A stretch of 50,145 bases of DNA from a virus (taxonomy: Duplodnaviria > Caudoviricetes), in IMG/VR virus record IMGVR_UViG_3300027680_000001, positions 1-50,145 of that record. One strand, written 5' to 3'. Below, piece by piece: positions 6,738 to 50,145 of the stretch (positions are counted from its first letter, which is position 1; the number at the start of each line of letters is the position of its first letter). The notes under the pieces were generated by a model, which worked only from the letters and a program-made list of their open reading frames with translations, was not told the origin of the DNA and did not search any database. Made by a program: the position numbers and the translations under genes.

Positions 6738-6738
6738 C

Positions 6739-8058: not shown

Positions 8059-8217
8059 CTATTCCTCCTCCTCAAGAGAGCGAAACTTTGCTCTGAAGTA
8101 TTCCTGTGCCTCAAGTTTCTCGCGTTGAGCTATTCTATGACTCTCCCACGCAGCAAATGCGAAGACAATCGAGAGAAGCCCTAAAGATACAAATCCTGCT
8201 ACTACAAAAGAGTTCAT
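8059..8217 (-). CDS. Small N-anchored membrane protein (not in ORF track)
   Basis: 52 aa MNSFVVAGFVSLGLLSIVFAFAAWESHRIAQREK...; fills the gap with an ATGA overlap. Confidence 0.55.
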   Translation of the reverse strand: MNSFVVAGFVSLGLLSIVFAFAAWESHRIAQREKLEAQEYFRAKFRSLEEEE

Positions 8218-8417
8218 AGATACCTCTCCTTCATCTCCACAAGTTTTTCATACCTAGCATCTTTGATGTTTGAGTACTTAATTCTTCCAAGGGATTTGAG
8301 AAAATGTAAATCCTCTTTGCTTATTCTCCTACTCTTTATCGGAGAAGCTAAGAGCACAGAGAATTGAAGAAGTATCATAAACACCTTTGCGGTTCTTTCA
8401 CGATCAGTCACTTTCAT
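8214..8417 (-). CDS. Hypothetical protein
   Basis: GGAGG RBS; overlaps its neighbours. Confidence 0.55.
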   Translation of the reverse strand: MKVTDRERTAKVFMILLQFSVLLASPIKSRRISKEDLHFLKSLGRIKYSNIKDARYEKLVEMKERYL

Positions 8418-8598
8418 CCTCCCAGATGATTTTGTCTCTCACAATACTTTGCCTCCACACATAGAATCTAAACTTCGATTCATGCTCTCTACAAATATCT
8501 ACATGATTAAAGGGATCGTCTTTAGAATAATGTAAGCGGAGTACGGCTGCTTCTTTACAGCGTACTCCGCTTGAATCAATGAAAGTACATTGCCACAT
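8404..8598 (-). CDS. Small CCCH-type zinc-finger protein
   Basis: C-x9-C-x21-C-x2-H motif. Confidence 0.6.
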   Translation of the reverse strand: MWQCTFIDSSGVRCKEAAVLRLHYSKDDPFNHVDICREHESKFRFYVWRQSIVRDKIIWEDESD

Positions 8599-9107
8599 TA
8601 ATTCGCCTTCTTTAGAAGGTCTGTTGAATGTCTTTCATGGCAATCAGTTACCGCGCAACGATATTGCCTGATCTCATTCCTTTGTCTTCCCTGATATTCA
8701 GTTATCGCGAGTTCCACTTCGATAACTTTGTTAGTAAGTGGGCCAAGATACTTCCATTGTTTCGGATCATCAGGAAACTTATCCGCGTTCTCAAAGACGC
8801 CGGGAATGGTATAACTCGCCGCCTCTGTTCCCTGATTCCCATCCTGTACTTCTTCCATTTGTAAACCAAAAGCGTGAACGAAGTCAAAAAGAATCCATCC
8901 AGCTTTGGAGTTGAGAGAGGCAAAAACCTTCTTTCCTTCTTCACTGCCATTCCCCACAATTGAGAACTCAGGATTCAGCGAAACGCTGTCTTTATTCTCT
9001 CCTGCTATTTGAGGTTTGAAGTGTTTGAACTGCAAGTTATACCACCCTGGAGGCGCTGGTGGTTTCCCATGTAACTGCTCCTTGTTAAAGCCCATACTAA
9101 ACGGCAT
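8598..9107 (-). CDS. Putative single-stranded DNA-binding protein (DUF669-like)
   Basis: Start moved to MPFSMG (AAGGAG RBS); PAPPGWYNL..EYQGRQRNEI pattern; downstream of the AAA_24 ATPase. Confidence 0.6.
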   Translation of the reverse strand: MPFSMGFNKEQLHGKPPAPPGWYNLQFKHFKPQIAGENKDSVSLNPEFSIVGNGSEEGKKVFASLNSKAGWILFDFVHAFGLQMEEVQDGNQGTEAASYTIPGVFENADKFPDDPKQWKYLGPLTNKVIEVELAITEYQGRQRNEIRQYRCAVTDCHERHSTDLLKKAN

Positions 9108-9339: not shown

Positions 9340-10124
9340 TTCACTCCCTTCGCTTTACGCTTTTCTTCATGCTTTGCAATCATGTTGAGAATGTTCGGAG
9401 GTTCAATAGGATCGAGAAGCAGAGTAGTATTCCAATTCCCTAAAATATTAGGTCTACACTCACATTCATATTTTCCCGTTGGACTCACTTTAATATGATA
9501 GACCTCATTAAATAAAGATAAACAAGAAGAGAGATACTGGGGATCAGTAGTAAGCTGCCCAGTATAAGCAGCCTCTTCCTTAGTTGATTCGGCATAGTCC
9601 TTTTCATTCTTTTCATGGAAAGCAAAGATAATATCAACACCGAGTGTACTAAACTCAGAGATGAGATAACCAACATAACGTTGTATACCGTTGATGACAT
9701 CCCATCCCTTTCTTACTTTCATAGAAGTTGAGTTTCCTACTTTGATCTCACGATATAAATCTTTACACTGTCTAAAGATCTCATCTTCCATAGCTCGCTG
9801 CATAAAAGTAACAGTGTCAAAACACACTGTTGCAGGAAGAGGAAGATTCTTTATCTTATTGGCTTTCATAATAGAGAGATCTCTTTCAACCTCAGTCATC
9901 TCGGGTTTTGTTTTTACAAAGAGTCCCTTCTTTCCCGCGAGAGATTCAGGACGATCATCGAAATCATAATAAAGTATAGGCGTTCGCGCTGTAGTACAGA
10001 GAGTGCTCTTACCGCTCTTTGGCTTGCCAACAATTGCAATTTTCAATCTCCCCGTAGGAGAGAGAGTCTCACTCTCTACTCCTGTCATTCCTGCAAAACA
10101 ATTTCCCTGAGCGAGTGAACTCAT
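9336..10124 (-). CDS. AAA_24/Sak4-like recombination ATPase
   Basis: Walker A GKPKSGKST; YDFD; TVCFDTVT; FAFHE. Confidence 0.8.
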   Translation of the reverse strand: MSSLAQGNCFAGMTGVESETLSPTGRLKIAIVGKPKSGKSTLCTTARTPILYYDFDDRPESLAGKKGLFVKTKPEMTEVERDLSIMKANKIKNLPLPATVCFDTVTFMQRAMEDEIFRQCKDLYREIKVGNSTSMKVRKGWDVINGIQRYVGYLISEFSTLGVDIIFAFHEKNEKDYAESTKEEAAYTGQLTTDPQYLSSCLSLFNEVYHIKVSPTGKYECECRPNILGNWNTTLLLDPIEPPNILNMIAKHEEKRKAKGVK

Positions 10125-10136
10125 TGTTGAAGCTCC

Positions 10137-10523
10137 TTACGAAGTAACTGGTGTTTCTGCTGGAAATCCTTTTCCACTCATTTTCTTATTCTTAGCATCT
10201 TTCGTGGATGGTTGCCACCAGAAATGTGTTGGTCCTACGCCGGCGGATATTCTAATATCATCAGAAGTATCCTTTCCAGTGGAAGAATTATCAAGCACCT
10301 GATCGTTTCTTTGATCTCCAGTTGAAGTAAAAAATCCTAAATCAGTGGAGCGCAAGATCTTATGATGCTTTTCGCATACATAGTATACTTGATAATTCGC
10401 AGGAAGTGCAGTATCAGTAACCTGTTGCTCTGATGGTCTAAAACACAAAAGACCATTAGTCTCAGGATACTGACACCGCCTGAATATTGAGGTTGCATCG
10501 AGTTGAACGTAAGTTCGAGCCAT
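10137..10523 (-). CDS. CCCH-type zinc-finger protein
   Basis: AGGAG RBS; C-x9-C-x22-C-x2-H motif. Confidence 0.6.
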   Translation of the reverse strand: MARTYVQLDATSIFRRCQYPETNGLLCFRPSEQQVTDTALPANYQVYYVCEKHHKILRSTDLGFFTSTGDQRNDQVLDNSSTGKDTSDDIRISAGVGPTHFWWQPSTKDAKNKKMSGKGFPAETPVTS

Positions 10524-10542
10524 AAAGAACTCCTATTTCCTC

Positions 10543-11043
10543 TTATTTTTTTTCTTCCGCGCCCGTATGGTGATGGAAGAAACTGCCTTCGGTTTTTTCT
10601 TTTTGCTCAACTTCTTTAGAGGTTTTGGAAGCTTGTACAGGTTTCGGCTGCTCCGCCTCCTTTGGCGCTTCTTGTTCTTTTTGAGTTTGATCTTTCGGCG
10701 CAGCTTCAAAATCAGGCGCAACTTGCGGAGGATCAATAACCATCTCCTTTAGAGGAGTATTAATATCCTCATCCTTAAGCGATCCAGCGTCGAGAGCTTT
10801 TTGAATCCTCACATGTCTCTCACATAGCTGATAAGTTCTTGTTGTCTTATCAGAAAGAGTCTCTTTAACCTCTTCCTCTCCTGCCTTCCAGCATTGGAGA
10901 CGACTTGGCAAAGTAAAAGAACATCTGTCAATTCTATCTCCTGTTAAGAGAGGTCTGAACTCTCTCTTAATCTTTTGCTCTGGAGGCTGTGCCGCTAGCT
11001 GTTCTTCAGGCTTCTTTTCAACAAGTGACATCTTAAACTCCAT
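10543..11043 (-). CDS. CCCH-type zinc-finger protein with low-complexity charged tail
   Basis: C-x9-C-x22-C-x2-H motif; E/K/Q/P-rich C-terminus. Confidence 0.6.
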   Translation of the reverse strand: MEFKMSLVEKKPEEQLAAQPPEQKIKREFRPLLTGDRIDRCSFTLPSRLQCWKAGEEEVKETLSDKTTRTYQLCERHVRIQKALDAGSLKDEDINTPLKEMVIDPPQVAPDFEAAPKDQTQKEQEAPKEAEQPKPVQASKTSKEVEQKEKTEGSFFHHHTGAEEKK

Positions 11044-12124
11044 TCAGTGAGATATTCTCTGTATTCCACAAAGGAAGTCTCACGAATCCGTTATTTAGCG
11101 TAGCCTGCTCTCCCACTACGTCGCTTTGACGGTGGACATCGAAGTAAACACACTTACCATGATACCAATTCGTACAATGACTCGTGTCTCTCGCAATTGG
11201 AGTTCCATTTGCAAAGCGAGTTAAATCTTGAAGCAGATTTTCGCACGATGTTATCATTCTTTTCTCATATAGAGAGAGTTGTTCACTAGTTTTCCATATA
11301 CATAATCTCCTGAATCTATCCATCGTATCTTTCGCCGGAGGATTTTTCGCAATCATATTAATGAGAATTCGATTACAATCTCGTTTTGTGATATATTCTT
11401 TAGGAATGTACTTCGGGAGAATTCTTCTGAGAGCGTATATGTATCCTGTTGGTCCTTCGTCGATAAGATATCTGTCCAAGGGATCATTCCTAAATGTTCC
11501 AGTTGTTTTATGATCCATTGGCATGATAAAGAATCCGTCATCGACAATAACATCCATTCTTCCTGCGAGACAGATAATGAGAGAGTTATCCTCATAGAGA
11601 ACAATTTCCTTCCCTTTTCCAAAAGAAATCTCAGTACCGAGAATACGAAGTTTTTCATTTTCTGCTTTAAATCTCGTAGCATACTGAAGAAGAATTCCTA
11701 CAAATCCTTTATATCCTCCTATAGTATGATACTCAGGATGCTCTTTATATAAATTATCCATATCTAATTTATCCCACACTGGCTTTGATTTATAAGTTGC
11801 CCAATCGAGCATATCAAATTCTGGATTCTTAAATTCTTTATAATAAATCTCCATCATTTTATGAAATGCAATACCGAAATCAAGATACCATCTTCTCAAA
11901 TTCGGAACTCCATATCCGGGTTTTGGGTGATATCCTAAAACATGCATTTGAATAAAAGCATCGGCACACGTTCTGTGCGTACTTAGCAAATGATTGTCTA
12001 CAACAAGAAGAAACTTTCTTGTTTCAACATCCATCTTTAGCCAAGGCAACTCATACTTATCCAAGAGAATAAGTAAGCTCTCTGTTTGATAATCTGAAAG
12101 CATATTTCCAAGCGTAGCTTGCAT
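11033..12124 (-). CDS. PD-(D/E)XK (RecB/Cas4-like) exonuclease
   Basis: FGIAFH; E..F..GRMDVIV..MDHKTT catalytic motifs; C-terminal cysteines; sits beside the AAA_24 and SSB genes. Confidence 0.8.
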   Translation of the reverse strand: MQATLGNMLSDYQTESLLILLDKYELPWLKMDVETRKFLLVVDNHLLSTHRTCADAFIQMHVLGYHPKPGYGVPNLRRWYLDFGIAFHKMMEIYYKEFKNPEFDMLDWATYKSKPVWDKLDMDNLYKEHPEYHTIGGYKGFVGILLQYATRFKAENEKLRILGTEISFGKGKEIVLYEDNSLIICLAGRMDVIVDDGFFIMPMDHKTTGTFRNDPLDRYLIDEGPTGYIYALRRILPKYIPKEYITKRDCNRILINMIAKNPPAKDTMDRFRRLCIWKTSEQLSLYEKRMITSCENLLQDLTRFANGTPIARDTSHCTNWYHGKCVYFDVHRQSDVVGEQATLNNGFVRLPLWNTENISLNGV

Positions 12125-12721
12125 TTACTTTCCCTTTCCCATTAGCTTCGCTAACATGTCAAGCATGTTAAGAGCATCGGTTGGTTTCATGTTTGAAAGA
12201 ATCGCGTTCATTTGATTCTTCTTCTTCTCCATCGTAGTGTGTGACACTACTGCGGTGTCTGTTTTAGTTACCACAGTGCTTGAGACAGTGCCAATCTTCA
12301 CGTTTTGCGCTTGGAATTTCTTTATCTTGCGCTCTTCTCTTTCGAGAATCATGAGAGAAGTTTGTTCTTTAAACAATTCAATCTTAAGCTCAAGCTCAGC
12401 ATCACTCATCGCGCTGTTTCTACGTTGCATAAAGAGATAATCCATGCCACTAATCTTATACGTCGTGGCCCGTCTCCTTATGATTTTTTCTTTATCTGTA
12501 ACAAGATCATAATCTTTTCTAGCGTATACTTCTTCGTTCTTTAGAAGATTCAGGTCGCTCAAACAATCCGCGCAATATTCATTCCCATCTATAATAGATG
12601 CAGAATGTATACAATATAATTCTCCACATCGTACACACTTTCGTATTCCAACTTCTTTCAAGAGATTATCATTGATGCATGTTTCGCATGTTTTTGAGGG
12701 CAATTCATTCTCATCACTCAT
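12125..12721 (-). CDS. Zinc-finger plus coiled-coil protein
   Basis: CETC, CVRC, CIH, CADC; C-terminal helical region. Confidence 0.65.
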   Translation of the reverse strand: MSDENELPSKTCETCINDNLLKEVGIRKCVRCGELYCIHSASIIDGNEYCADCLSDLNLLKNEEVYARKDYDLVTDKEKIIRRRATTYKISGMDYLFMQRRNSAMSDAELELKIELFKEQTSLMILEREERKIKKFQAQNVKIGTVSSTVVTKTDTAVVSHTTMEKKKNQMNAILSNMKPTDALNMLDMLAKLMGKGK

Positions 12722-12739
12722 TGTCTCTCCTTTGCATTT

Positions 12740-12955
12740 TTAAAACTGAGCATCATGCATGTTCGCTTGTGTTCTAACCACCTCTTCAATTACCTTCTTA
12801 TGCATTTGTGGAAGATTTCCCGCAAAATACTCTCTTAAAAGAGCGCGAACGAGAATCGAGGCAGATACCATTTTTGGCAAAGTCTTAAGAATGATCAATT
12901 GGTCATTCTCGATTCTTACTGATGTTATTGATGTTTTATTGTTGCGTGCTGCCAT
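12740..12955 (-). CDS. Putative ribbon-helix-helix transcription regulator
   Basis: TSVRIE beta-strand followed by helices with SILVRALLREY; first gene after a sigma70-type promoter. Confidence 0.55.
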   Translation of the reverse strand: MAARNNKTSITSVRIENDQLIILKTLPKMVSASILVRALLREYFAGNLPQMHKKVIEEVVRTQANMHDAQF

Positions 12956-12978
12956 TGCTTATTACCCCCGATTTGGGA

Positions 12979-13008
12979 AGGATAATATGCCCGCGATGCG
13001 CCTGTCAA
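12979..13008 (-). promoter_or_regulatory. Sigma70-type promoter for the replication module
   Basis: TTGACA-18-TATCCT on the - strand; 25-bp IHF-like site at 13015-13039. Confidence 0.6.
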
Positions 13009-13068: not shown

Positions 13069-13248
13069 TCACCTAAATGAATCAATTACTTCAAACAAAA
13101 GTTCTCTGTAGATATCGGCTTTCAGCTCTTCTTTTGAAAGCCTTGCGTTGAGGTTGTTGATCTCTTCAAGTTTTCTCTCAAGTAAATCTGCAAGAGGATC
13201 AATTACGCTTTCTGTAGCTTTGTTTGTAACTTTTGAGTTTTTCTTCAT
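13069..13248 (-). CDS. Small coiled-coil protein (start uncertain)
   Basis: DPLADLLERKLEEINNLNARL heptads; 5' part overlaps the acidic ORF. Confidence 0.45.
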   Translation of the reverse strand: MKKNSKVTNKATESVIDPLADLLERKLEEINNLNARLSKEELKADIYRELLFEVIDSFR

Positions 13249-13516
13249 TGTCGTGTTCGATACGTTCTTCGATTTCCTCAAATAAATTCCCTTGGGCATC
13301 GTCCTCATCCTCTCTTGACTCCTCACGAAGTCCGTAATATCCATCCATACACTCTTGTGTACAGAATGGATTGTTTTCTTCATCAAATACTACAGAATCT
13401 TCATCCTCAAAGATTGTTTCTGGAGGATCTTGTCCGTAGTATCCACAATTATAGGAATGTTCTACTCCTATAAGAGCGCCACATCCTGTGCATTCAACGT
13501 CACTACGTTGAGACAT
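13199..13516 (-). CDS. Acidic protein with Cys/His metal-binding motifs
   Basis: AGGAG RBS; CTGC..H..C and FCTQEC; very D/E-rich. Confidence 0.6.
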   Translation of the reverse strand: MSQRSDVECTGCGALIGVEHSYNCGYYGQDPPETIFEDEDSVVFDEENNPFCTQECMDGYYGLREESREDEDDAQGNLFEEIEERIEHDNEEKLKSYKQSYRKRN

Positions 13517-14651
13517 ATTGTCTCCTTATCTCATCATACTGTGCTGTAACCACAGCAATATCCTGCGTGGTAACATACGCAGAATGCGCTCTCTTCAGCA
13601 TGTCTGATCCTGAGATTTTGTAAAGATAATCCCCCTTTCCTAGAAGACACTCAGCTCCATTTTCATCAAGAACTACTCTTGAATCAGCCATTGTGGGAAG
13701 TTTAAAGCAAATTCTCGCAGGGAAATTAGCTTTCAAATCCCCTGAGATCACTTTCACGCTAGGGCGTTGTGTAGCAACAATGAGATGTACTCCAGCCGCG
13801 CGAGATATTGCAGCAATTTGTTTCACTAACATCTCTATAGACGTTGGACGATCCTTTTTAGGAATCCCTGCCCAAAGTATCTCATCTTGCTGCATTACAT
13901 CTGCAAATTCGTCAATGATGAATACTTTGTACTTAAGCTTTTGTCCCATTCCAAGAGTGTTCCACTCTTTAATATTCCGAGCGTATCCACTCATTAATTC
14001 AGTACGTCTTCGTACTTCTTGTAACGCATCTGTAAGCGCAGTGCGCAAATCTTCAACCTCTCTAACTACAGAAGAAACATGATCTAAATCTTCAAAGAAA
14101 ACTAAATCAAGCTTCTTTGTATCCACAAGCGTAAAGGATAGTTCCTTCGGCGATCTAAAAAGCGCCAAGCTTGCTATAAGCTGAGAGGTGAATACAGATT
14201 TTCCTGACCCAGTTGAACCTGAAATGAGCAAATGAGGTTGATCAGCAAGATCAGCGTACAAATAATCTCCTCTAGTATTCTGTCCCATAAGTAAGGGAAG
14301 CTGCATATCAACAGTTTGAGGAGATGTAAGTAATCCATGCAAGCATGAATCAAATCTGATAACCTTCCTGTCTTCTCTCGGTACTTCAATTGCAATGAGT
14401 CCAGCATTTCTTTCAATCCTCACACTTTCTACATGCAATGTACCAGCGAGTTCCTCTTCTTTATTTAAAATCTTCGAGAAGAGAGATCCCTCTGATGGTT
14501 GGAAGAAAAAGGTCCGTAAATATGGACCTTCCTCTAGTTTTTCGAAAAATGCAGCGAATCCTAGAATAAGCATCTTATGTGAGAGCTTTCCTATTTGTTG
14601 CTGCACTTCAGGTGGTAGTCCCTCTGATTTGCTAAGAAGATTCAGTGGCAT
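13503..14651 (-). CDS. FtsK/SpoIIIE-family ATPase (motor domain only)
   Basis: PHLLISGSTGSGKS, VDTKKLDL, IIDEFAD, RAAGVHLIVATQRPS, GAECLLGKGD; no TM segments or gamma domain. Confidence 0.9.
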   Translation of the reverse strand: MPLNLLSKSEGLPPEVQQQIGKLSHKMLILGFAAFFEKLEEGPYLRTFFFQPSEGSLFSKILNKEEELAGTLHVESVRIERNAGLIAIEVPREDRKVIRFDSCLHGLLTSPQTVDMQLPLLMGQNTRGDYLYADLADQPHLLISGSTGSGKSVFTSQLIASLALFRSPKELSFTLVDTKKLDLVFFEDLDHVSSVVREVEDLRTALTDALQEVRRRTELMSGYARNIKEWNTLGMGQKLKYKVFIIDEFADVMQQDEILWAGIPKKDRPTSIEMLVKQIAAISRAAGVHLIVATQRPSVKVISGDLKANFPARICFKLPTMADSRVVLDENGAECLLGKGDYLYKISGSDMLKRAHSAYVTTQDIAVVTAQYDEIRRQYVST

Positions 14652-14654: not shown

Positions 14655-14906
14655 CTACCTCAAAGGATCAGCGATTTTGGTAATTGACGCAAGCTTTACA
14701 TCCTCAATCTTCAGAGGAAAATCAAGCGTATACTTTGTGTTTGTGTTTCTTAGATAGAGAACGAGCCTTATCATAGGCTCGTTCTCCATATCCGTGGGAA
14801 AGAAGAACTCATATTTATGTGAGTTCTGTTTTTCCCATTTAGAGAGTAGTTGAGGAAACTTTGTTGCGATTACTCTCTCTGTAAGTTCTTGGATTGTTTC
14901 GTTCAT
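14655..14906 (-). CDS. Hypothetical protein
   Basis: 83 aa between vWA and FtsK. Confidence 0.6.
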   Translation of the reverse strand: MNETIQELTERVIATKFPQLLSKWEKQNSHKYEFFFPTDMENEPMIRLVLYLRNTNTKYTLDFPLKIEDVKLASITKIADPLR

Positions 14907-15662
14907 TTAATTATGCTTCCCCGCTTCCAATTCTGCTTTGAAAGATGGAGATTGAAGCATCTTGCGATATACAGGCGCAAGATACTTGAACGCTTTGGCA
15001 AAGTTAACCTTTACAGGATCAAAATGCAAAAAGATTCCTCCTGTGCGTTCGCTGAAGTATTTGAGAAGAGCAATCTCATTCTCCATGCGTTCTGAACCAA
15101 AGAACACAGTATCGATTGGAATCTTGCGCTCTACTGCCTGCGTGATAATTACATCAGCGTTCTCTTTATATCGATCAAGCGTACTTCTTCCGTCGTTCCA
15201 ATCTTTCACAGTAATAATCTGATCCGTAGGAGATCCATCCGTGAATACAACCATGCGCGTTGTTAGAGGCATGTTCACTACCTCATTCATGCGCTTAAAT
15301 AATGGAGTACCTCCAAGATTAAGCTGAATTGTAGTTAAAGCTGTACTCTGCGCAGGAAGATCAGTGCTTAATTGCTCAAGGTTCGCACTATCTTCAGAAT
15401 TTGTGCAAAGAAAATGAACCGAAACAGCAGTTTGATTTGGAATGCAATTCCTCATATACTCTGTGACTCCGGTTTTTGCATTCTCAATTTGAGAAGTCAT
15501 AGAACCACTATCGTCAAAGACGATTCGTGTTCTATCCTTCGTTTCCTCTGGCTTTACATACTTCGTAATAGCCGCAGGCGCAGGCGCAGCAGCCTTAGCT
15601 TTTGCTGCTGCTAAGGCTGCTTTCTTATCCAAATTTGGATCTTTCTTCACAATGAATGTCAT
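14907..15662 (-). CDS. von Willebrand factor A (vWA) domain protein
   Basis: MIDAS DDSGSM, GGTPL, VVFTDGSP, IDTVFFG, TGGIF. Confidence 0.85.
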   Translation of the reverse strand: MTFIVKKDPNLDKKAALAAAKAKAAAPAPAAITKYVKPEETKDRTRIVFDDSGSMTSQIENAKTGVTEYMRNCIPNQTAVSVHFLCTNSEDSANLEQLSTDLPAQSTALTTIQLNLGGTPLFKRMNEVVNMPLTTRMVVFTDGSPTDQIITVKDWNDGRSTLDRYKENADVIITQAVERKIPIDTVFFGSERMENEIALLKYFSERTGGIFLHFDPVKVNFAKAFKYLAPVYRKMLQSPSFKAELEAGKHN

Positions 15663-23878: not shown

Positions 23879-25747
23879 GTGAATCAAATAGAGTGCGAGA
23901 TACGAGATTCACTATCTGCACAACGTGGGTTGGAGATAGGATTACTAGGGGAGAGTCTTGTACCTCGTTCTACGATTCTGAATTACAGATTAATAGATAC
24001 GCTAGCGTTAAAGGGGAATGCGAAGAGATTAGCTTTCCGACTCAATTCATTGATGGATCTATATTATTTCTCCACCGTTGTGTTAAGAAGAACAAAATTC
24101 TCGCGAAATCCAGACAAGAGAAGAAATCTTCATTATCAGATGTGTTTATTGGTAATGAAAGACGGATTAAAAGAGGGGATAGAAATCCCCCGTGATCATT
24201 TAAAGAGCACTGTATATAGCGAATGCGCTCCTATATGGTGGGCGCTGCCTTTTGAGCATAGAGAAGAAGATTACTTCGTGAATCTTGGGTATGATGATTT
24301 ATATATCCAATGGATGCGAAGAGCGCATAATCAGGATGTGAGAATTCTTTTGGTATCGGAGACGATAAAAAATGCCACAAAACTCGGCGGTAGAATCGCA
24401 AATCATTATGAGAGTAACGACCTCTTTAGAGAATTATTCTTTGATATTTTACCCACAGAAAGAGAAACATGGACGGCTGACTCTTTACATCAACGACGTA
24501 CTAGCAGCGGAAGGGGACACGGAGAGGGTACTTTCGATTTTATCGGAGTGGGTGCGGCTTTGCAGTCAAGACATTACAATAAGTGTGTCCAGGACGATCT
24601 CGTTGGAAGAGAAGCTCGCAAAAGTGCAGTTGTAATGGCGGATACGATAGATTATCATCAAATTCTTGTTGGAGCAACTGATTCTGACTCAGATGACCCA
24701 GGGAGGGATTTTGATGAACTCGTTGTGGGTAATAGGTGGAGTACAGACGATCTCAATTCACATATACGAAAAGAAGAGTCCTATTTTACATGGACTACGC
24801 ATTCAGCACTTGGAGGGTGTTGTGCATTACATCCTTTTGGCGAGCCGATATATCCAGAGGGATTCACAAAAGAAAAGCTCTTGCGCTGGAAAAAACGTTT
24901 GGGCACATATCACTTCAGTTGTCAATTCCTCAACTTTCCTATTGATCCGACCAAGGCTAGGATCAACATGGGAGATTTCAGATTCTTTCATTTTGAAAAA
25001 ACATACGGGGTATTTACAACTCCCAAGCATACAAAGTGGGAAGATGGAGAGATTATAAAACCTGCTTCGCAATATAGAATTGCGATTAGGCATCATATTG
25101 CTGAAGGAGATGTTGAGAAAGATGTATATCCAAGAAATCTTGAAAGATTTATGGTTGTTGACCCGAATCACGGAGGACAACATTCCACCGGGGAACCCGG
25201 TAAAGGGGGACGATGCAGACATGCTCTTGTGGTGGCTGGGATACTCAGAGATCCAAGAAGAATTTATGTCCTCGATCAATGGGCAGAGGCGTGTTCTATT
25301 GAGAGCTTTATAAAGAAGATCTTTTTTCTAGCCTTAAAATGGAAACTTACTAAGGTTTATGTTGAAGCAGTCGCAGCGCAGAAGTTCTTGCTTTATCATT
25401 TAAGGTATTTTGTGGCCCGAAATCGCAAGGAGCATCCTGATCTGGCTTCGATTCAATTTTTAGAATTAAAGAGTTCTCAGAATATAAACGCGAAAGAGGA
25501 GAGAATTGATAATTTTATTCCGATTATTGAGAGGCATGAGGTTTTCTTAGACGCTAATAATAGCGCAGAGCTGAGGGAAGAAGCCGAAGCGTGGGGGCAA
25601 AAAAGGTACTTGATAGATCTTTTAGATGTACTCTCTTATATTCCTCAAGTTGCGAACTTTGATACAGCAGATGAGGATGAAGTTGAGGAGTTCTTGGATA
25701 AGCAGAAGGCGCTTTATCTCAAGAGAGTGAGAATGCTAAGTGCGTAG
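23879..25747 (+). CDS. terL: Terminase large subunit
   Basis: Walker A IPRDHLKST, Walker B VQDDLV, coupling motif VGNRW, FSCQFLN, RNase H-like VVDP and VEAVAAQ, final DLLD. Confidence 0.9.
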   Translation: MNQIECEIRDSLSAQRGLEIGLLGESLVPRSTILNYRLIDTLALKGNAKRLAFRLNSLMDLYYFSTVVLRRTKFSRNPDKRRNLHYQMCLLVMKDGLKEGIEIPRDHLKSTVYSECAPIWWALPFEHREEDYFVNLGYDDLYIQWMRRAHNQDVRILLVSETIKNATKLGGRIANHYESNDLFRELFFDILPTERETWTADSLHQRRTSSGRGHGEGTFDFIGVGAALQSRHYNKCVQDDLVGREARKSAVVMADTIDYHQILVGATDSDSDDPGRDFDELVVGNRWSTDDLNSHIRKEESYFTWTTHSALGGCCALHPFGEPIYPEGFTKEKLLRWKKRLGTYHFSCQFLNFPIDPTKARINMGDFRFFHFEKTYGVFTTPKHTKWEDGEIIKPASQYRIAIRHHIAEGDVEKDVYPRNLERFMVVDPNHGGQHSTGEPGKGGRCRHALVVAGILRDPRRIYVLDQWAEACSIESFIKKIFFLALKWKLTKVYVEAVAAQKFLLYHLRYFVARNRKEHPDLASIQFLELKSSQNINAKEERIDNFIPIIERHEVFLDANNSAELREEAEAWGQKRYLIDLLDVLSYIPQVANFDTADEDEVEEFLDKQKALYLKRVRMLSA

Positions 25748-30338: not shown

Positions 30339-31298
30339 ATGCCTCAAGTTAGGGCGAAGTTTCCACAACTCATGCAGCCAGGATTGAAGAAGATTTATTT
30401 CGACAGTCTTGACTCACAGCTTAAGGCATCTGATTATCCGAAGGTCTTCAATGAAGAGAAATCGGACAGTCAGTATGAGCAAGAGCTGGAAATGGCAGGA
30501 ATTTCTGCACTTCAAGAGAAACCTGAAGATGCTTCAACTGCTTATACAGAGATGAAGCAGGGTGGATCAAAGAGATTTGTCCATTTAACATATTCTCTAG
30601 GAATTCGCACATCTAGAGAACTCTACGATGATGATAAATATGGTCTTACAGGAAAGAAAGGGCCACAATTATTGGCGCGTAGTGCTGCTTTTACGCAGGA
30701 AATGGTAGCGTGGAATGTGTTCAATCAAGGATTTACTTCATCTGTTTCCACAGTTGACGGAAATCCACTTTTCTATAATCAACATCCACTTATAGGCGGT
30801 CCATCTGCTACAGCATTAGCGCCTGGAGCAGCTGGAGTGGTATCTCTCGCAGGAACATGGCCTAATCGTCCTGCGGTTGATGTAGATTTCAGCGTAGCTG
30901 GTCTTCAACTTGCAACAAATCATGCAGCGCGCATGGTTGATAATATGGGATTTCCTATTCGTTTAAGATGGGAGAATCTCATAACTCCTCCAGAGCTTCG
31001 CTTCCTTGTGCGTGAGATTTTAGGATCTCCTGGCAAGCCGTATACAGCAGACAACACAATCAACTCACTCTTGCCTGAAGATTACAAGAACTTAGAAATT
31101 CCTTGGCTTAACAATCCAAGTAATTGGTATCTTGTAGCTACAAAGAGTGATCATTCTCTACGAGTATATCATCGCGAACGTCCTTCGACAGACTTCGATG
31201 ATGACTTTGACACTGATGCTATTAAGCAGAAGACTAGACTACGCATGAGTGCTGGAGCGACGCGTTGGCAAGGGTGCTGGGGCAGTCAAGGCCCTTAA
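30339..31298 (+). CDS. Major capsid protein (HK97 fold)
   Basis: 319 aa; KPE..Y..G, RELYDDD.Y, DG.PLF..HP, LITPPELRF, W.G.WGS.G terminus. Confidence 0.85.
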   Translation: MPQVRAKFPQLMQPGLKKIYFDSLDSQLKASDYPKVFNEEKSDSQYEQELEMAGISALQEKPEDASTAYTEMKQGGSKRFVHLTYSLGIRTSRELYDDDKYGLTGKKGPQLLARSAAFTQEMVAWNVFNQGFTSSVSTVDGNPLFYNQHPLIGGPSATALAPGAAGVVSLAGTWPNRPAVDVDFSVAGLQLATNHAARMVDNMGFPIRLRWENLITPPELRFLVREILGSPGKPYTADNTINSLLPEDYKNLEIPWLNNPSNWYLVATKSDHSLRVYHRERPSTDFDDDFDTDAIKQKTRLRMSAGATRWQGCWGSQGP

Positions 31299-31326
31299 GT
31301 ACTTGATTCTAAAGGGGTTAGGTCGC

Positions 31327-31355
31327 TTGACAAGCGGTTTCGGGATGTGTACCAT
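31327..31355 (+). promoter_or_regulatory. Sigma70-type promoter of the HNH cassette
   Basis: TTGACA-17-TACCAT; 25-bp IHF-like site at 31296-31320. Confidence 0.7.
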
Positions 31356-31377
31356 GCGATGCAGGGGGTACAATACG

Positions 31378-32025
31378 ATGGACGAAAGACGTAAGATATG
31401 TCCTGTCTGTAATGAAGACAAACCGATAAATGCGTTTCAACTTAACCCTGATGGATCAATTCGAAAGCATGTGTGTAAACTTTGTTATGGAAGAAAATGG
31501 AGAGCGCAGATTAAACTTGAGATGCTCAATACTTTTGGAAGAAAGTGTCAATGTTGTGGAGAGCGGAATCCTCAATTTCTAACACTCGATCATGTAAATA
31601 ATGATGGAGGAAAGCAAAGGGCAAAAAATAAAGAAGAGCACAATAGTACAAACATTGAGCTTATTTATCAGCAAGCTAGAAGAGAAGGCTGGCCGAAAGA
31701 TAAGTATCAATTGCTTTGTATGAATTGTAATTTTGCAAAAGGACATTGGGGAATTTGTCCCCATCAGAGCGCTTTGACTGCCGATGCTATTTATGTTGAG
31801 TTGGAGAGCAGAGTCTTTCCTAATACAGGTAAAAAGCATCAAAACATGAATCTTGAGCCTCTTAAGCTTGGTCCTCTTTCACGAAAACTTCCTGAAAAGG
31901 AAAGACATGAACACAGATTAGAGACTTTTAAAAAGTCTCACATAAAGAAACAGATTCTTGAGCTTCTCCAAAACATGTCCTCTGAACAAAGGGATGAGTT
32001 TTTGAAGAGAACGCAGGGTCCGTGA
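31378..32025 (+). CDS. HNH homing endonuclease
   Basis: CPVC..CKLC zinc finger; CQCCGE..LTLDHVNNDG..QLLCMNCNFAK; start moved downstream of the promoter. Confidence 0.85.
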   Translation: MDERRKICPVCNEDKPINAFQLNPDGSIRKHVCKLCYGRKWRAQIKLEMLNTFGRKCQCCGERNPQFLTLDHVNNDGGKQRAKNKEEHNSTNIELIYQQARREGWPKDKYQLLCMNCNFAKGHWGICPHQSALTADAIYVELESRVFPNTGKKHQNMNLEPLKLGPLSRKLPEKERHEHRLETFKKSHIKKQILELLQNMSSEQRDEFLKRTQGP

Positions 32026-45972: not shown

Positions 45973-46137
45973 ATGAGTGGACAAAGTGCAAATCTTACTC
46001 TCGCAGAGGCAAAAGCTATGCAAGAGTGCGTTCAAGCTTCTGGTTCTCATGCTTCCAATCATGGAGGCTCTGGGAAGAAATCAGGCTCTAAGAAAGGAGG
46101 AACACCTATCGATAAAAAAGTATCACATCAGGGATAG
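45973..46137 (+). CDS. 54-aa G/S/K-rich peptide (not in ORF track)
   Basis: GGAGAGG RBS; MSGQSANLTLAEAKAMQECVQASGSHASNHGGSGKKSGSKKGGTPIDKKVSHQG. Confidence 0.6.
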   Translation: MSGQSANLTLAEAKAMQECVQASGSHASNHGGSGKKSGSKKGGTPIDKKVSHQG

Positions 46138-46147: not shown

Positions 46148-47452
46148 ATGCGGATAGCACTTTCATCATATACCGGAGTTGGAGCGTGGTTTGTACTTCG
46201 GCTTCTAGCTGAAGGACACGAAGTAGATTACTATCTCTCTAAATCTGAATATGATGAAGTGCTATCTGGCATTATTCCTTCTCCAAAGATGCTTTCTATA
46301 GATCATAGAAGAACTCTTAAAGGATTTGGTTATGCGTCGTACAAAGGATATGATCTTTCAATCTTTGACCTTACAGGAAAAGCTAAACAAGCTGATTCTT
46401 CACGGAGTGACTGTCCTACCTTCGGAGATGGAAGCTTTGAGTGTCTCCTTGAAGACGATAGAGAAGCAGGCTTGTCCTTTATGGAAAAGTGTGAGATTAA
46501 AACCCCACCATACCAAAGATTCGATAAGAGTTCAGAGGCTAAGAGTTTTGTTAGAAAACAAGACAAAAGATATGTCTTCAAGCCCTTTACTCCGAGCGGC
46601 TCTACTCAGGATACTTCTACAACGTATGTGTCCAAAGACGCCGAAGATATGATAAAGAATTTAGATAATCTATGCGCTGACGCGAAAGGAGCGCCTTTTG
46701 TTTTACAAGAATATATAAAAGGAACAGAGCTTTCTGTAGAAGCGTGGTTTAATGGAACTGATTTCTTTAATATAACATGCGATCTTGAAGAAAAGAAGTT
46801 CATGAACGATAAGAAAGGTCCGAATACTGGCTGTGCAGGAAATCTCATCTTCGCGATACACGAAGATATGCATATATATAAGGATACGCTTTTAAAAGCT
46901 AAATCTGCGCTTCAAGCTGTTGGATTTAAAGGAGTTATCGATGTCAATTCAATCGTTACTGAAGGGCGTGTCTATTCGCTTGAGTGGGGACCGAGATTTG
47001 GTTATCTATGTTGCCCTGTCTTTGCTAATATGTATGGCTCTGGTTTTGGAGAGTTTCTCCATGCTATTGCATCTGGAAGGACGCCGAATGTCAAATGGAG
47101 TGCCTCTTTCGGCGCAGCCATCACAATCTCAATCCCCCCTTATCCAACCGAGATAAGAATTCCTAAAGCAAAAGATATTCCCATAGAAGGGATTGATCCA
47201 GAGGATATTGAGGAATTACTTGATTATTATTTATATGATGTGAAACTTAATGGTAAGGGATTGATTACATCTGGGAATTATGGATTTGTCGGTGCGCCGA
47301 TTGGAATTGGGGATTCTATAACAGAAGCATTTATTAAATGTGAGCGACTTTTAGAGAGAGTTCAAATCCCTAACATTCAATATCGCACTGATATTGAGAA
47401 AGTGTGTACTGAAAAGTTCTATACACTTGAAAAGGATGGGTGGTTCTCATGA
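46148..47452 (+). CDS. PurD-like ATP-grasp amide ligase
   Basis: LEDDRE, YVFKP, LQEYIKGTELSVE, EEKKFMNDKKGPNTGCAG, GVIDVN, LEWGPRFG; start moved to MRIALSS. Confidence 0.85.
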   Translation: MRIALSSYTGVGAWFVLRLLAEGHEVDYYLSKSEYDEVLSGIIPSPKMLSIDHRRTLKGFGYASYKGYDLSIFDLTGKAKQADSSRSDCPTFGDGSFECLLEDDREAGLSFMEKCEIKTPPYQRFDKSSEAKSFVRKQDKRYVFKPFTPSGSTQDTSTTYVSKDAEDMIKNLDNLCADAKGAPFVLQEYIKGTELSVEAWFNGTDFFNITCDLEEKKFMNDKKGPNTGCAGNLIFAIHEDMHIYKDTLLKAKSALQAVGFKGVIDVNSIVTEGRVYSLEWGPRFGYLCCPVFANMYGSGFGEFLHAIASGRTPNVKWSASFGAAITISIPPYPTEIRIPKAKDIPIEGIDPEDIEELLDYYLYDVKLNGKGLITSGNYGFVGAPIGIGDSITEAFIKCERLLERVQIPNIQYRTDIEKVCTEKFYTLEKDGWFS

Positions 47453-50145
47453 AAAAAATTCTCATGTTTTTGTTTGTTTTAATATTTCTAGGCAAAGTCT
47501 ATGCACAGACAGCTTCTATTACAGGAACTGTTACAGATTCAGATTCTCAACTCTGGTTAAATGGAACGTGGACATATACATTCTATCCAAATGTTAATTA
47601 TCCTAATTTAAACTCTTATTATGTAGGGAGTACTCCATTAAGTACATATTATAATGCTCCTGTTAGCGGAATCTTAGATCCTTCTGCTGCAACATTTACA
47701 ATGAGTAATATGGTACGAAGTGATAAAATTTCTCCCTCAGGATCGATGTGGACACTTCAGTTTTGTCCTAATGCTACATCAAAATGCGGATCATTTAATT
47801 ATAATCTTACAGCAGATTCTGTAACAGGTTCTACAATAAATTCTCTTATAACCGCTGCGATACCTGCTCCTCGCTTTGAACCTATCGCGGGAGCGTTTGG
47901 ATATAATGATACAGAGGCAATTATAAATCCCACAGCAGGAACCCCTGGTGGAACGTATTGGAATGTTATATCTGCTTGTCAGAGATATTATAGTAATATG
48001 TCTCCTATAGGATGGGCGTGTGGTAGCGGCAGCAGTGGTGGATCTATTACAGGGCAGGCCAATGGCGTGATTCCGTTGGCAACGGGTGCAACATCTATTG
48101 GAGCGCAATCACATATTGACGATGGAGTGACTACACCAAGTACAGTTACTTCTACGGAGGGAATTGCAGCTCCTAATTATATTGGTCCTGTTCAGCAATT
48201 TCAGCCCTATACGCTACGATCAACGCTAACCAAGACCGGACTAATGGCGCTGTATACGGCAGGTAACGCAAGTTACACCAGTCCAGCGCAGTTAAATATA
48301 ATGATGCTCGGTGATTCTACAGGCTTCATGCATACTGGAGTTATACCTTGTCAACTTACAGCAGCTTATGGTGCTGCTGGATACATGGGTCAACAGTTAG
48401 GATCGAATGTTTCAGGAATAGGCTTCAACTGCGCTACCTCTGCTGGTGGTAATGCTCCCACGCTCGCGGGTGGAGCTTATTGGGTTGACGGTAGTACCTA
48501 TGCTTTTGATTTTGCGCACTCTCCTAACGGCCAGTATTGGGTTATCCCTCCCGGTGGATCGTTAGTATCTGATAGTACATTTGTACCTTACTCCACCGAC
48601 GAGCGTGTGTATTATACCTCTGCTGCTAGTGGTGCTAACATTGTCGTTTCTACAGGCTCAGGTTCTACTTGGACAGCATTAGGTAATGGTGGAACGTACT
48701 CTGCATCAGTTTGTAATGGCGCTGTTACAGCGAATGTAGGAGGAGTTTGCCATGCAACCATGACTCGTGGTATCAATCAGCTACAAATTACTAACCCCAG
48801 CGGAACTGCCAACTTATACGTTATGGTCTACGGGCAGCATGACACCACTGTGAACGGTACGGTGTTCTGGCAAACAAGCCGTGGCGGTCTTAGTGTTCCC
48901 GATTACTCATCTACACCTAATGCCGTCGTTCAACCTTGGCTGAATGATTTTAAACCTGATCTTATAACTAGCGAATGGAAGACTAACGGTGTTGTTGGCG
49001 GCACTGGCGGCTGCCAACAGGCGACGACTGCTGCTCCTACAGTTTTTCAGAACTATTCTTACTGGTTCGCTAACATGATGACACCAATTCAGACGGCAAA
49101 TGCTCTTGCTGATTTCGTAGTCTTAGGCGACTATGACTATACTACTCCCGGTGTTTCTTGCGTTGCTCCTTTTAACAAGCAAGTACAGCAATGGGCAGCC
49201 GCGCAAATCAGGCCACAAACTTATGTTGACGAGTACACTCAATTAACAAACGCTGATCAGGCCACGCTTGGCTGGAATACAGTGGGCAATGCTCATCAAA
49301 CTGCTCTTGGACAAACAGCCGGGGATCAATTGATGATGCAGTATCTAGGAATCGGACAATGGCCTAATTCTCCCGTTACTAGAGATATCATTGCGCAGCA
49401 TTATGTCAACACTGCGGCAATCAATTTGAACCAATACAATAACGGTTCTAACTACTCAGTGATAAATGGCTATCCAAGTACCTCTACTGACATACTTATA
49501 AAATCTGGCAGGTCAATCATCGGATCGGATCAATCGGGACACGCCATATTTAATTTGGGGTCCACAACTGTGGCATATGCTCAAGGCAATAATTCGATGC
49601 CATGCTTTCAATTTGTGATGTTAAATACTTCAGGCACCTTATCTGGTAACTGGCTATGCAGTGTTGGTGGTCAGGCTGGAGTTTGGAGCAATCCGGGGGG
49701 TTCTGCACCTGCACCTTGGTATACAAGTTCATTGCGTCTACCAACTAGTGGTGGTGGATGGGATAGTATTAATGGTAATCCTGCCGGGGCTGGTTCTCCT
49801 ACTTTCGTAATGCCAACTGTAGGTGGAATGATACAAGCAGTGGCTAATGAAACCTCTACTGCGGCAATCGCGTTTGTAGCTCCGGTAAAAGCTGACACAG
49901 CCCATGCAAATCAAGTTGTTATAACTACAACTACAGACACCAGTGCGGGGATTGTGATTGGTGTTTGTATTAATAATCCTGCTGCTGCTGCGGCATGCAA
50001 TATTGCGACAACTGGTGTTTGGGGTCTGACGCTCGGAACGGGAACCTGCGCGATTGGTAACTTTGTTATTGTGGATACAACTACCAACGGTGATGTGAAA
50101 TGCACAGCGACCTACACGGCAGGAATGGTGATTGGAGTGGCTATG
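47449..50145 (+). CDS. Large signal-peptide-bearing fibre/adhesin-like protein with SGNH hydrolase domain (3' truncated; not in ORF track)
   Basis: Translated by hand, 899 codons open to the window end. Signal peptide MKKILMFLFVLIFLGKVYA|Q; SGNH blocks MLGDST, SRGG, EWKTNG, NAHQT; C-terminal IGVC..IATTG..IGVAM domain resembling DUF2190/cement-like folds. Confidence 0.8.
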   Translation, partial: MKKILMFLFVLIFLGKVYAQTASITGTVTDSDSQLWLNGTWTYTFYPNVNYPNLNSYYVGSTPLSTYYNAPVSGILDPSAATFTMSNMVRSDKISPSGSMWTLQFCPNATSKCGSFNYNLTADSVTGSTINSLITAAIPAPRFEPIAGAFGYNDTEAIINPTAGTPGGTYWNVISACQRYYSNMSPIGWACGSGSSGGSITGQANGVIPLATGATSIGAQSHIDDGVTTPSTVTSTEGIAAPNYIGPVQQFQPYTLRSTLTKTGLMALYTAGNASYTSPAQLNIMMLGDSTGFMHTGVIPCQLTAAYGAAGYMGQQLGSNVSGIGFNCATSAGGNAPTLAGGAYWVDGSTYAFDFAHSPNGQYWVIPPGGSLVSDSTFVPYSTDERVYYTSAASGANIVVSTGSGSTWTALGNGGTYSASVCNGAVTANVGGVCHATMTRGINQLQITNPSGTANLYVMVYGQHDTTVNGTVFWQTSRGGLSVPDYSSTPNAVVQPWLNDFKPDLITSEWKTNGVVGGTGGCQQATTAAPTVFQNYSYWFANMMTPIQTANALADFVVLGDYDYTTPGVSCVAPFNKQVQQWAAAQIRPQTYVDEYTQLTNADQATLGWNTVGNAHQTALGQTAGDQLMMQYLGIGQWPNSPVTRDIIAQHYVNTAAINLNQYNNGSNYSVINGYPSTSTDILIKSGRSIIGSDQSGHAIFNLGSTTVAYAQGNNSMPCFQFVMLNTSGTLSGNWLCSVGGQAGVWSNPGGSAPAPWYTSSLRLPTSGGGWDSINGNPAGAGSPTFVMPTVGGMIQAVANETSTAAIAFVAPVKADTAHANQVVITTTTDTSAGIVIGVCINNPAAAAACNIATTGVWGLTLGTGTCAIGNFVIVDTTTNGDVKCTATYTAGMVIGVAM

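Follow-up and report, generated by a model that had tools for sequence, protein, structure and literature searches.

The deoxyribonucleic acid analysed here (the window) is the IMG/VR virus record IMGVR_UViG_3300027680_000001, 50,145 bases of a divergent tailed-phage contig. The subject is its last gene, which is located on the plus strand and encodes a fibre-type protein that begins with a predicted export leader. The late genes, among them those for the large terminase and an HK97-type major head protein, were found on the plus strand from approximately 22.7 kb to the window end, resuming at the window start up to a terminator-like hairpin; the minus strand carries genes for a DNA polymerase, a primase and an FtsK-like ATPase. 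The fibre-type open reading frame (ORF) runs from an ATG to the window end, where it is still open after at least 899 codons, in agreement with a preliminary description made from the sequence alone. The window stretch was present in 24 soil-metagenome runs, two of which may have supplied the window DNA and are not independent; no RNA run was listed among the 24.

The export leader of the fibre-type protein

The first 19 residues of the protein, MKKILMFLFVLIFLGKVYA, are followed by QT and have the full three-part grammar of a signal peptide: a positively charged n-region (K2 and K3), a 12-residue uncharged core, and V-Y-A directly before Gln20. The hydrophobic core, ILMFLFVLIFLG, has a mean Kyte-Doolittle value of 3.5 over 11 residues. 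The residues at -3 and -1 are small and uncharged, and there is no lipobox Cys at +1. In the AlphaFold2 model of the N-terminus, a helix (residues 2-13) precedes the folded domain.

Leaders were scored with a crude, untrained von Heijne-type rule (charge, core hydrophobicity and -3/-1 residues) on the 44 window ORFs taken as genes, and the fibre leader received the highest score (13.2). The rule was passed by four of the six ORFs to which signal-like starts had been ascribed (the fibre gene and the ORFs at 29, 1162 and 2178) and by none of the other 38; the leader-like N-termini of the window are therefore all confined to a single run of genes, which is located at the end of the late unit. A reading as lipoproteins (signal peptidase II) was rejected, as none of the six leaders has a Cys at +1.

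A word-indexed search returned six relatives, all of which begin with a leader, and an exhaustive search returned 758 representative proteins at E≤0.001. The best 150 of the 758 fall into three sets, which share the N-terminal 200 residues or so, the middle, or approximately the last 100 residues. Leaders were counted in 153 stored proteins, 99 of which have the motif of the N-terminal domain (N-domain), and a leader followed by Gln at the expected place was present in 95 of these 99. The commonest -3/-1 forms in the 95 were AxA (29), SxA (16), VxA (12) and LxA (10), with Ala mostly at -1. Three of the 99 have a leader without Gln at the expected offset, one of which (P0102) has AVA and then Q a few residues earlier; the last (P0148) begins at the mature end and has no leader. 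One other protein, P0153, is a leaderless N-domain paralogue, and its genomic copy (locus L005, 9977-10894) is truly leaderless because its start lies 10 bases past the upstream stop.

Core sequences vary freely among the relatives and their hydrophobic character is kept, as in real leaders. Relatives that share only the middle or the C-terminal module, and whose N-termini are unrelated, were seen by eye mostly to have a hydrophobic core, then Ala or Gly, then Gln. The preliminary description had proposed that the protein starts with a cleavable-type signal and that conservation in homologues would be a check on it; both the signal and its conservation were found, with leaderless proteins as a few exceptions. 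On sequence grounds, the export leader of the fibre-type gene is a family-wide trait and not a quirk of one gene. We infer that it is used for export and cut after Ala19.

Table 1. Features of the fibre-type gene and of the late unit, with their positions in the window.
Feature	Position	Strand	Remarks
Fibre-type gene	47449-50145	+	at least 899 aa from ATG, open at window end
Predicted signal peptide, residues 1-19 (MKKILMFLFVLIFLGKVYA)	47449-47505	+	predicted cut before Gln20; sequence, score, model and conservation
N-domain, residues 20-200	47506-48048	+	predicted transthyretin/CarboxypepD_reg-like sandwich (~20-142) and trimerising neck (~146-193); Cys106/113, Cys177/191
Gly/Ser/Thr-rich linker, residues 201-249	48049-48195	+	low pLDDT; similarity to L006 fibre stops at about residue 246
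Predicted Ape1-type SGNH O-acetylesterase with inserted beta-sandwich, residues 250-641	48196-49371	+	Foldseek, VIA and block conservation
Region of residues 642-800	49372-49848	+	pLDDT <50 (17-row alignment), no family match
C-terminal knob-type domain, residues 801-899	49849-50145	+	well conserved; C-terminal in many other proteins
Small Cys-rich FN3-like protein with leader (MKLLLLILLLAPKIATVS then HQ)	29-457	+	orthologue in L006, 12890-13297
Two-domain paralogue with weaker leader (MRVYLNLLPWVLATASINA then QT)	405-1217	+	start overlaps end of previous ORF; Shine-Dalgarno motif AGGAGG
Paralogue with leader, four conserved Cys	1162-1608	+	passes crude rule
134-aa protein, hydrophobic N-terminus	1777-2181	+	no clear cleavage site; fails crude rule
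38-aa ORF, leader and Pro/Lys-rich tail (MKRIEFILSLIAFLAQA then KKPHPKPPPPPKPGPGTNTIS)	2178-2294	+	passes crude rule; orthologue in L006
Big_2 Ig-like protein, no leader	2304-2924	+	Pfam Big_2 1.8e-4, just below cut-off; PHROG tail/structural Ig families
60-aa protein with two hydrophobic stretches (putative holin-like)	2927-3109	+	last gene of late unit; no Pfam match
Terminator-like hairpin closing the late unit	3113-3141	+	11 pairs, 7 of them G-C; first strong one
Large terminase	23879-25747	+	PHROG 38, 5.8e-46
HK97-type major head gene	30339-31298	+	family scans
ATP-grasp (GARS_A/PurD-like) gene	46148-47452 (alternative GTG start 45977)	+	Pfam GARS_A 1.2e-13

Domains of the fibre-type protein

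The N-domain that follows the leader is common to more than 90 proteins of 187-1485 aa. The AlphaFold2 model of residues 1-210 had a pLDDT of 88 (54-row alignment), with a beta-sandwich after the leader helix. Foldseek of the N-domain model against the PDB gave nothing at E≤0.001. An exhaustive VIA search placed residues 19-142 among transthyretin/carboxypeptidase-regulatory-like sandwiches, with a best Z of 8.0 and many ties. The tied rows included the A-1(L) neck fibre (Z 8.0), the Ur-lambda tail tip (Z 7.2), the XM1 neck (Z 6.6) and the Bxb1 tail tip (Z 6.4), values that fall in the range the tool calls common, and the ties include many unrelated sandwiches; past its cleavage site the N-domain aligns from residue 1 of these four virion-proximal fibre N-termini. 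In BFVD the matches were uncultured-phage proteins (E 7e-6), an SGNH protein of phage LIT1 (E 6.4e-4, weak) and several annotated tail fibres.

The oligomeric state, which the preliminary description had put forward for structure prediction, was modelled with three copies of residues 20-200. A trimer was predicted through residues 146-193, with an ipSAE of 0.74 compared to 0.02 for the best control; the runs agreed in at least 86% of contacts and pLDDT was at least 89. A mark of 0.74 was reached by 20 of 30 solved homomers and by one of 23 solved monomers, although the present runs, unlike the calibration, used their own alignment and three copies. An alignment-based scan of cellular genome contigs revealed no N-domain, and a hidden Markov model (HMM) of the domain had no match in the Acidobacteriaceae metagenome-assembled genome (MAG) G001 or in the 401 Acidobacteriota genomes searched.

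Residues 186-899 were folded from a 17-row alignment, and the model was confident only for residues 253-635, which hold the esterase module. Foldseek matched this module to Ape1 (4k3u; E 4.8e-14, TMt 0.69). In VIA the Ape1 structures gave Z values of 25.7, 25.5 and 25.2 with 322-325 residues aligned (at best 324 of 350, with a root-mean-square deviation of 3.8, over a chain range of 40/44 to 392/393), and the next SGNH enzymes had a Z of 14.7 or less, 11 units below Ape1; both lists consisted of SGNH enzymes throughout. The strands of the insert occupy model positions 153-290, between the block I helix and block II. Block I is G288-D289-S290-T291, with Ser290 as the catalytic serine, and GDS was conserved in 13 of the 14 aligned rows that cover the site. 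Asn513 of block III and His616 of block V were present in all 16 covering rows each, and block II was assigned to the GG at 479-480 by position only.

Identity to Ape1 in the structural alignment was 11-13%, and phmmer of the fibre protein against PDB sequences gave no match at E≤1, so that there is no sequence-level link to Ape1; the 900-aa, 646-aa and 1368-aa ORFs of the window had no phmmer match to PDB sequences either. Pfam (E≤0.1) and PHROGs assigned no family to the window fibre protein, and hence no fibre or spike family. A homologue, P0008, matched the Pfam SGNH families (Lipase_GDSL/Lipase_GDSL_2) with 17.3 bits, below the cut-off of 23.6, and the Atlas SGNH cluster for the fibre protein scored 0.79, which is a lead only. 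The SGNH esterase that had been read in this protein was borne out by fold and motifs, though with no Pfam match on the window protein: as modelled, the module is an Ape1-type SGNH O-acetylesterase. Since the closest fold is that of a periplasmic peptidoglycan O-acetylesterase, peptidoglycan is as good a candidate substrate as O-antigen.

The DUF2190-like end named in the preliminary description corresponds to a sub-threshold match to PF09956 (Phage_cement_2, formerly DUF2190) in one of five complete homologues (P0068; E 1.3e-4, 22.8 bits, cut-off 24), and there was no such match in the window copy. A type IX secretion system (T9SS) C-terminal sorting domain was not matched by Pfam on the window protein, the C-terminus of which is incomplete, or on the 15 homologues scanned. 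The many cysteines seen earlier were counted at 16, in eight neighbouring pairs (106/113, 177/191, 301/328, 422/434, 522/571, 719/737, 840/850 and 867/885), and those of the N-domain together with the 522/571 pair are invariant or nearly so in the relatives. Cys makes up 38 of the 1631 residues (2.33%) of the six leader ORFs compared to 105 of 11492 (0.91%) in 32 other ORFs, a 2.6-fold difference.

The C-terminal domain continues for 17 aa past the window end in eight aligned homologues and in other proteins of this kind; judged by these sequences, the fibre gene is cut by the contig end about 17 codons short of its expected stop. Contigs of other runs extend beyond position 50145 by 2,251 (X1, a contig of 5,327 bases), 175 (X3) and 487 (X4) bases, which points to an assembly break at the window end, and one X2 contig ends exactly there. 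An exact 30-mer from the window end had no matches in viral contigs or metagenome contigs. A 50,172-base contig that encodes a protein identical to that of ORF 1162 is on record, so any missing piece is probably short. Exact circular closure, by which the ORF would end in RDDRAEIN*, was judged unlikely: this wrap-around tail (window 1-27) is not homologous to the family C-terminus, window bases 1-28 resemble intergenic DNA of the related locus L006, and the contigs of other runs continue.

Neighbouring genes, related loci and host

The stop codon of the ATP-grasp gene overlaps the ATG of the fibre gene (ATGA), and AAGGA lies 12 bases before this ATG. The fibre gene had been described as heading an operon, a claim that did not hold: the gene lies inside the long late unit and is translationally coupled to the preceding gene, and the first strong terminator is the hairpin at 3113-3141. 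Between 43500 and 50145 there was no plus-strand terminator-like site comparable to this hairpin, which faces convergent minus-strand genes.

The tblastn search with the whole fibre protein against 50,697 phage records gave no match, and a single-protein scan of viral contigs found none with the fibre. The alignment-based scan of viral contigs succeeded and yielded 12 loci; the contigs of six are 47.9-50.2 kb long. In nine of these (L001, L002, L004-L007, L009, L010 and, in part, L003) the ORF just upstream was seen by eye to share its N-terminal sequence with the ATP-grasp gene of the window, L003 having only the C-terminal part of this ORF; the Pfam scan was made on the window copy alone. 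The recurrence of this neighbour places a cytoplasmic ligase beside an exported-type protein. An ORF of 54-61 aa (MSGQSANLTLAEAKAMQ...) is also conserved, between a 660-aa gene and the ATP-grasp gene (window 45973-46137; L006 8498-8662; L007 227-412).

Copy number and position vary among the loci. Two to four tandem leader-bearing genes were found in L007, L009 and L012, with the N-domain motif in those of L009 and in at least two each of L007 and L012. Locus L005 has one leaderless and one leader-bearing N-domain copy; its order (9977-13005) is the leaderless N-domain paralogue, of 305 aa with the four Cys and the Gln kept, two leaderless genes (331 and 367 aa) and the leader-bearing N-domain gene. 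In L008, which is of a different genome type, the N-domain gene is located between head and tail genes, and a LAGLIDADG-like ORF (11389-11820; LAGFFDGEG, by eye) directly follows the leader-bearing fibre gene.

The closest comparison was L006, a close relative whose ATP-grasp protein is 84% identical to that of the window. By BLASTP the two fibre proteins are alike only over residues 5-246 (53%), after which L006 has unrelated sequence. The L006 fibre gene stops 40 bases ahead of an FN3-like gene, after which come a multi-domain paralogue, another paralogue, a gene of the 134-aa type, a small Pro-rich ORF, a Big_2 gene and finally a minus-strand GroES-like gene. Because the same series lies directly after the L006 fibre gene, the window fibre gene truly adjoins the small leader-bearing genes; the preliminary description had placed them after it on a circular map, and this adjacency stands by synteny, with the exact junction doubtful.

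Five small ORFs had been said to have signal-like starts. This was confirmed by the crude rule for those at 29, 1162 and 2178; the leader of ORF 405 was sub-threshold (6.9), and ORF 1777 did not pass. The L006 orthologue of ORF 1777 (14881-15291) has a clear leader, MKLLIILLLLQSGFA then I; the two products (134-136 aa) are 31% identical, the fastest-evolving of the small set, and the window protein has four Cys and no family. Motifs of the AGGAG or AAGGA type lie ahead of those starts of ORFs 405, 1162 and 1777 that include the leader. The products of ORFs 29, 405 (which has two domains) and 1162 are paralogous, and each domain has four invariant Cys (Cx5C...Cx5C). A hydrophobic leader, in most cases with Gln after it, was found in 31 of the 33 ORF 1162 homologues. 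Atlas fn3 clusters matched the ORF 1162 type at 0.89, below the lead level of 0.9, and neither Pfam (E≤0.1) nor PHROGs gave anything for ORFs 29, 405, 1162 and 1777.

Ratios of nonsynonymous to synonymous substitution (dN/dS) relative to L006, for which dS was near saturation, were 0.27 for ORF 29, 0.43 for ORF 1777 and 0.18 for ORF 2178; for ORF 1162 (dN 0.29, 68% amino acid identity) dS was undefined, so no ratio is given. From these sequence comparisons, the small downstream leader-bearing genes are under purifying selection. Where one FN3-like ORF gives way to the next paralogue, approximately 55 bases belong to both, in different frames, as the 3' end of the first and the leader-coding 5' end of the second (405-457 and 1162-1217). 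This layout is kept in L006 (~13240-13297 and 14411-14414), which suggests that the overlap was part of the unit that was duplicated.

None of the ORFs that were scanned with Pfam or PHROGs (not all of the small ones) matched an endolysin family, so the lysis system is either unconventional or undetected. Elsewhere in the window, a 245-aa minus-strand protein (3321-4058) has a Cpn10/GroES-like C-terminal part and CxxC zinc-finger-like motifs (sub-threshold DnaJ_CXXCXGXG) and is conserved in L006 (16625-17365). The start of an HNH/endonuclease VII-like gene (31249-32025) lies within the 3' end of the major head gene. The early region on the minus strand encodes an FtsK/SpoIIIE-like ATPase (PHROG 1358, 2.7e-81) and a VWA-domain protein (13503-14651 and 14907-15662).

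Gln at +1 of a signal peptidase I site is presented as a hallmark of Bacteroidetes in two papers (PMC5837995, PMC10653852). Gln20 of the fibre protein occupies this Q-rule position, as does the Gln of the 95 relatives. Shine-Dalgarno-like motifs at normal spacing precede 32 of 37 window genes. Starts led by such motifs are atypical of Bacteroidota and of most of their phages. Among cellular genomes, a relative of any of the modules was found solely in an Acidobacteriaceae MAG (G001, locus L013), in which the C-terminal domain is 75% identical and the protein that carries it itself has a leader followed by Gln. Three leader-bearing ORFs near this match (3369-8683) also read A or G and then Q. 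A crude scan of 400 kb of the same MAG (L014-L033), a single genome, found 68 leader-like starts among 782 ORFs, with Gln the commonest +1 residue (19 of 68). This is a hint that the Q-rule may not be exclusive to Bacteroidota. The window G+C content of 38-47% is a poor fit to Acidobacteriaceae, and tblastn with the large terminase gave three weak matches only (an archaeal virus, an uncultured phage and a Weizmannia phage). The paired Cys speak in favour of a diderm host with an oxidising periplasm.

Possible functions of the exported protein

It is highly probable that the precursor is a substrate of the Sec system and signal peptidase I and that the mature protein is a disulfide-bonded trimer with an O-acetylesterase. 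For the role of this trimer our preference is tentative, at a little short of an even chance: an enzyme, either free or bound to the envelope, that has the envelope of the infected cell itself as its target. Late in infection, translation of the long structural transcript would yield the precursor, which the host Sec system would export; the cut after Ala19 would leave Gln20, which may cyclise to pyroglutamate, and the eight Cys pairs would be oxidised in the periplasm. The Ape1-type module, with Ser290 and His616, would remove O-acetyl groups from an envelope glycan. This glycan may be peptidoglycan, which would then be open to muramidases or lytic transglycosylases, or it may be a surface polysaccharide that serves as receptor, the destruction of which would spare the progeny and exclude rivals. 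Together with the small exported FN3-like proteins, the enzyme would condition the envelope for release, destroy receptors, or both, and the fibre-type protein would be absent from the virion.

The lean towards a free enzyme has four grounds. The closest fold is that of a periplasmic enzyme, Ape1; the fibre gene is followed by other leader-bearing genes; N-domain paralogues occur in tandem, and an enzyme set fits this better than fibres competing for one docking site; and the leaderless copy of L005 could fill any virion site first.

A number of observations weigh against it. The residue at His-3 is Gly in the window copy, so that the usual catalytic Asp is absent, and it is Asp in some homologues only. 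The leader is missing from one paralogue and from one or two entries of the database. The N-domain was found in phage contigs only, as expected of a part that fits the virion, and there is no obvious need for a conserved domain of 180 residues in a free enzyme. In eight of the 12 loci (L001, L004-L006 and L009-L012) the N-domain gene or genes were the last large plus-strand genes of the structural block, the upstream view in L002, L003 and L007 being limited to the ATP-grasp gene or the contig end. The homologue P0005 matches K1-lyase_C, a fibre/spike module, at the cut-off. A constant N-domain with exchanged distal modules, in a predicted homotrimer, is the pattern of a receptor-binding protein, and no other receptor-binding candidate was recognised in the window, a weak point since the searches were largely blank.

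Much of this evidence would fit a protein that does belong to the virion, a serious possibility to which we give somewhat less weight than to the free enzyme. An exported fibre or spike would mature in the periplasm and its N-domain trimer would dock on fibreless particles at holin lesions or at lysis; the small FN3-like proteins may reach the particle in this way too, as decoration proteins. Such two-compartment assembly is favoured by the receptor-binding-protein pattern, by the predicted trimer (0.74 compared to 0.02 for the control), by the confinement of the N-domain to phage contigs, by the failure to recognise another receptor-binding gene in the window and by the location of the gene, translationally coupled, in structural operons of at least two phage lineages. 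Fibreless T4 and spikeless P22 particles accept free fibres or spikes in vitro. The alignment of the N-domain with virion-attached fibre N-termini from residue 1 also counts for it (Z 6.4-8.0, tied with unrelated sandwiches), but these matches are within the range that the tool calls common. Furthermore, no tailed phage known to assemble in this way was found in the full-text literature searched (supplements excluded), fibres that join only after lysis are in danger of being diluted, a single site would be contested by several paralogues that share the N-domain, and the leaderless L005 paralogue could occupy that site first.

Broader than docking alone is the proposal, possible but doubtful in our view, that a clade of tailed soil phages sends its receptor-binding fibres, and perhaps decoration proteins, through Sec. 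These would be oxidised and trimmed in the periplasm and the particles would become infectious once lysis merges the compartments; earlier, the exported fibres would strip O-acetyl groups from an envelope receptor or from peptidoglycan.

Improbable by comparison is assembly of the fibre in the cytoplasm without export, the leader-like segment being buried in the tail, cut by a phage protease or membrane-active at infection. Tailed-phage fibres normally do assemble in the cytoplasm, and the leaderless L005 paralogue (9977-10894) keeps the whole N-domain, the four Cys and the Gln. One study notes capsid proteins for which signal peptides are predicted and which the prohead protease probably cuts (PMC10367356). 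Against this stand the full signal peptidase I grammar, with a 12-residue core too short for a membrane span, mostly Ala at -1 and Gln at +1 in 95 relatives, and a core conserved in character and not in sequence, as in true leaders. The same grammar on the unrelated N-termini of module-sharing proteins and on the small downstream ORFs, and the conserved paired Cys, which fit an oxidising compartment, also count against it.

Equally improbable is a narrower form of the free-enzyme reading, a lysis accessory only, which would de-O-acetylate periplasmic peptidoglycan to enable a wall-cutting enzyme and have nothing to do with receptors: it would fit a fold match specific to Ape1 (Z 25.2-25.7 compared to at most 14.7 for other SGNH enzymes listed), the export signal, the position in the last part of the late unit near the holin-like ORF and the lack of a recognised endolysin family in the scanned ORFs, but unrelated distal modules fill the same slot in relatives (L006; proteins of 187-1485 aa), which a conserved lysis task does not need, the link to Ape1 is one of 11-13% identity that sequence searches did not recover, and a shared fold does not give the substrate.

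The preliminary description had reasoned that either virion proteins mature in the periplasm or the phage remodels the host surface. Its premise held, and both alternatives are compatible with the results, which do not separate them.

The nearest known enzyme is Ape1 of Neisseria meningitidis and Campylobacter jejuni (PDB 4k3u, 8gkd and 8gld), in which, as in the window module, the SGNH domain is interrupted behind block I by a beta-sandwich. Almost all of the mature enzyme is included in the match, with the GDS Ser and the block V His; Ape1 is exported, and the window protein bears a leader. In contrast to Ape1, the window module lacks the His-3 Asp and is one part of a protein of at least 899 aa, flanked by a phage-specific, predicted trimerising N-domain and a C-terminus of knob type.

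SGNH esterases are known on phage spikes, gp63.1 of coliphage G7C being an example. The SGNH proteins of Pseudomonas phages LIT1 and KPP21 (BFVD) are likewise late proteins of phages that join an SGNH esterase to a constant N-terminal part. Spikes of this type are not known to carry a signal peptide, and they are incorporated into the virion in the cytoplasm. Cor, Llp and Lom are exported exclusion or conversion proteins encoded beside tail-fibre genes, and are single small lipoproteins or outer-membrane proteins. Leader genes at the end of a tail block are a possible analogy to ORFs 29-2294, which differ as tandem Cys-rich FN3-like paralogues without a lipobox that accompany a 900-aa enzyme. 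The adsorption protein pIII of filamentous phages has a Sec leader and disulfides and is added outside the cytoplasm, to particles extruded at the membrane; the window, in contrast, is from a tailed phage with terminase and HK97-type capsid genes.

Prophages of Porphyromonas gingivalis encode leader-bearing Q-rule proteins of unknown function (PMC10367356; also PMC10653852). Shared with the present family are signal peptidase I leaders that expose Gln, read there as an adaptation to host export. In the available portions of these papers they are a few temperate-phage genes, presented as host-modifying and with no fibre link, whereas the present ones form a fibre-type family with 758 representatives. 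The bacterium Pantoea stewartii has a glycan-modifying enzyme of tailspike-like fold, WceF, in the description of which a signal peptide is also mentioned (PMC7949094). WceF is similar as a tailspike-like protein that serves as a non-virion envelope or biofilm enzyme; it differs in being bacterial and of another fold class. In a survey of phage diversity-generating retroelements (DGRs), the lack of signal peptides in the target proteins was used as an argument that these come from phages (PMC6199706).

The full-text literature searched (supplements excluded) contained no description of a tailed phage whose tail fibre or spike has a Sec leader. Fibre-type SGNH proteins and exported phage proteins are known already. 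The preliminary description had called either of its alternatives unusual. Exported phage proteins as such are not, and the family-wide leader on a fibre-type protein is.

Tailed-phage assembly is taught as cytoplasmic, and fibre annotation and host-range tools are trained on that assumption; signal peptides should not exclude ORFs from catalogues of receptor-binding proteins in soil viromes. The Acidobacteriaceae Gln +1 count bears on the use of the Q-rule for host assignment. The N-domain is a compact, predicted trimerising carrier that naturally tolerates many cargo modules. If the protein does join the virion, this would be a phage clade that finishes its virions with parts matured in the periplasm. 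If it is instead the free or envelope-bound enzyme that we tentatively prefer, a modular fibre architecture would have been turned into sets of secreted enzymes that remodel the envelope of the infected cell.

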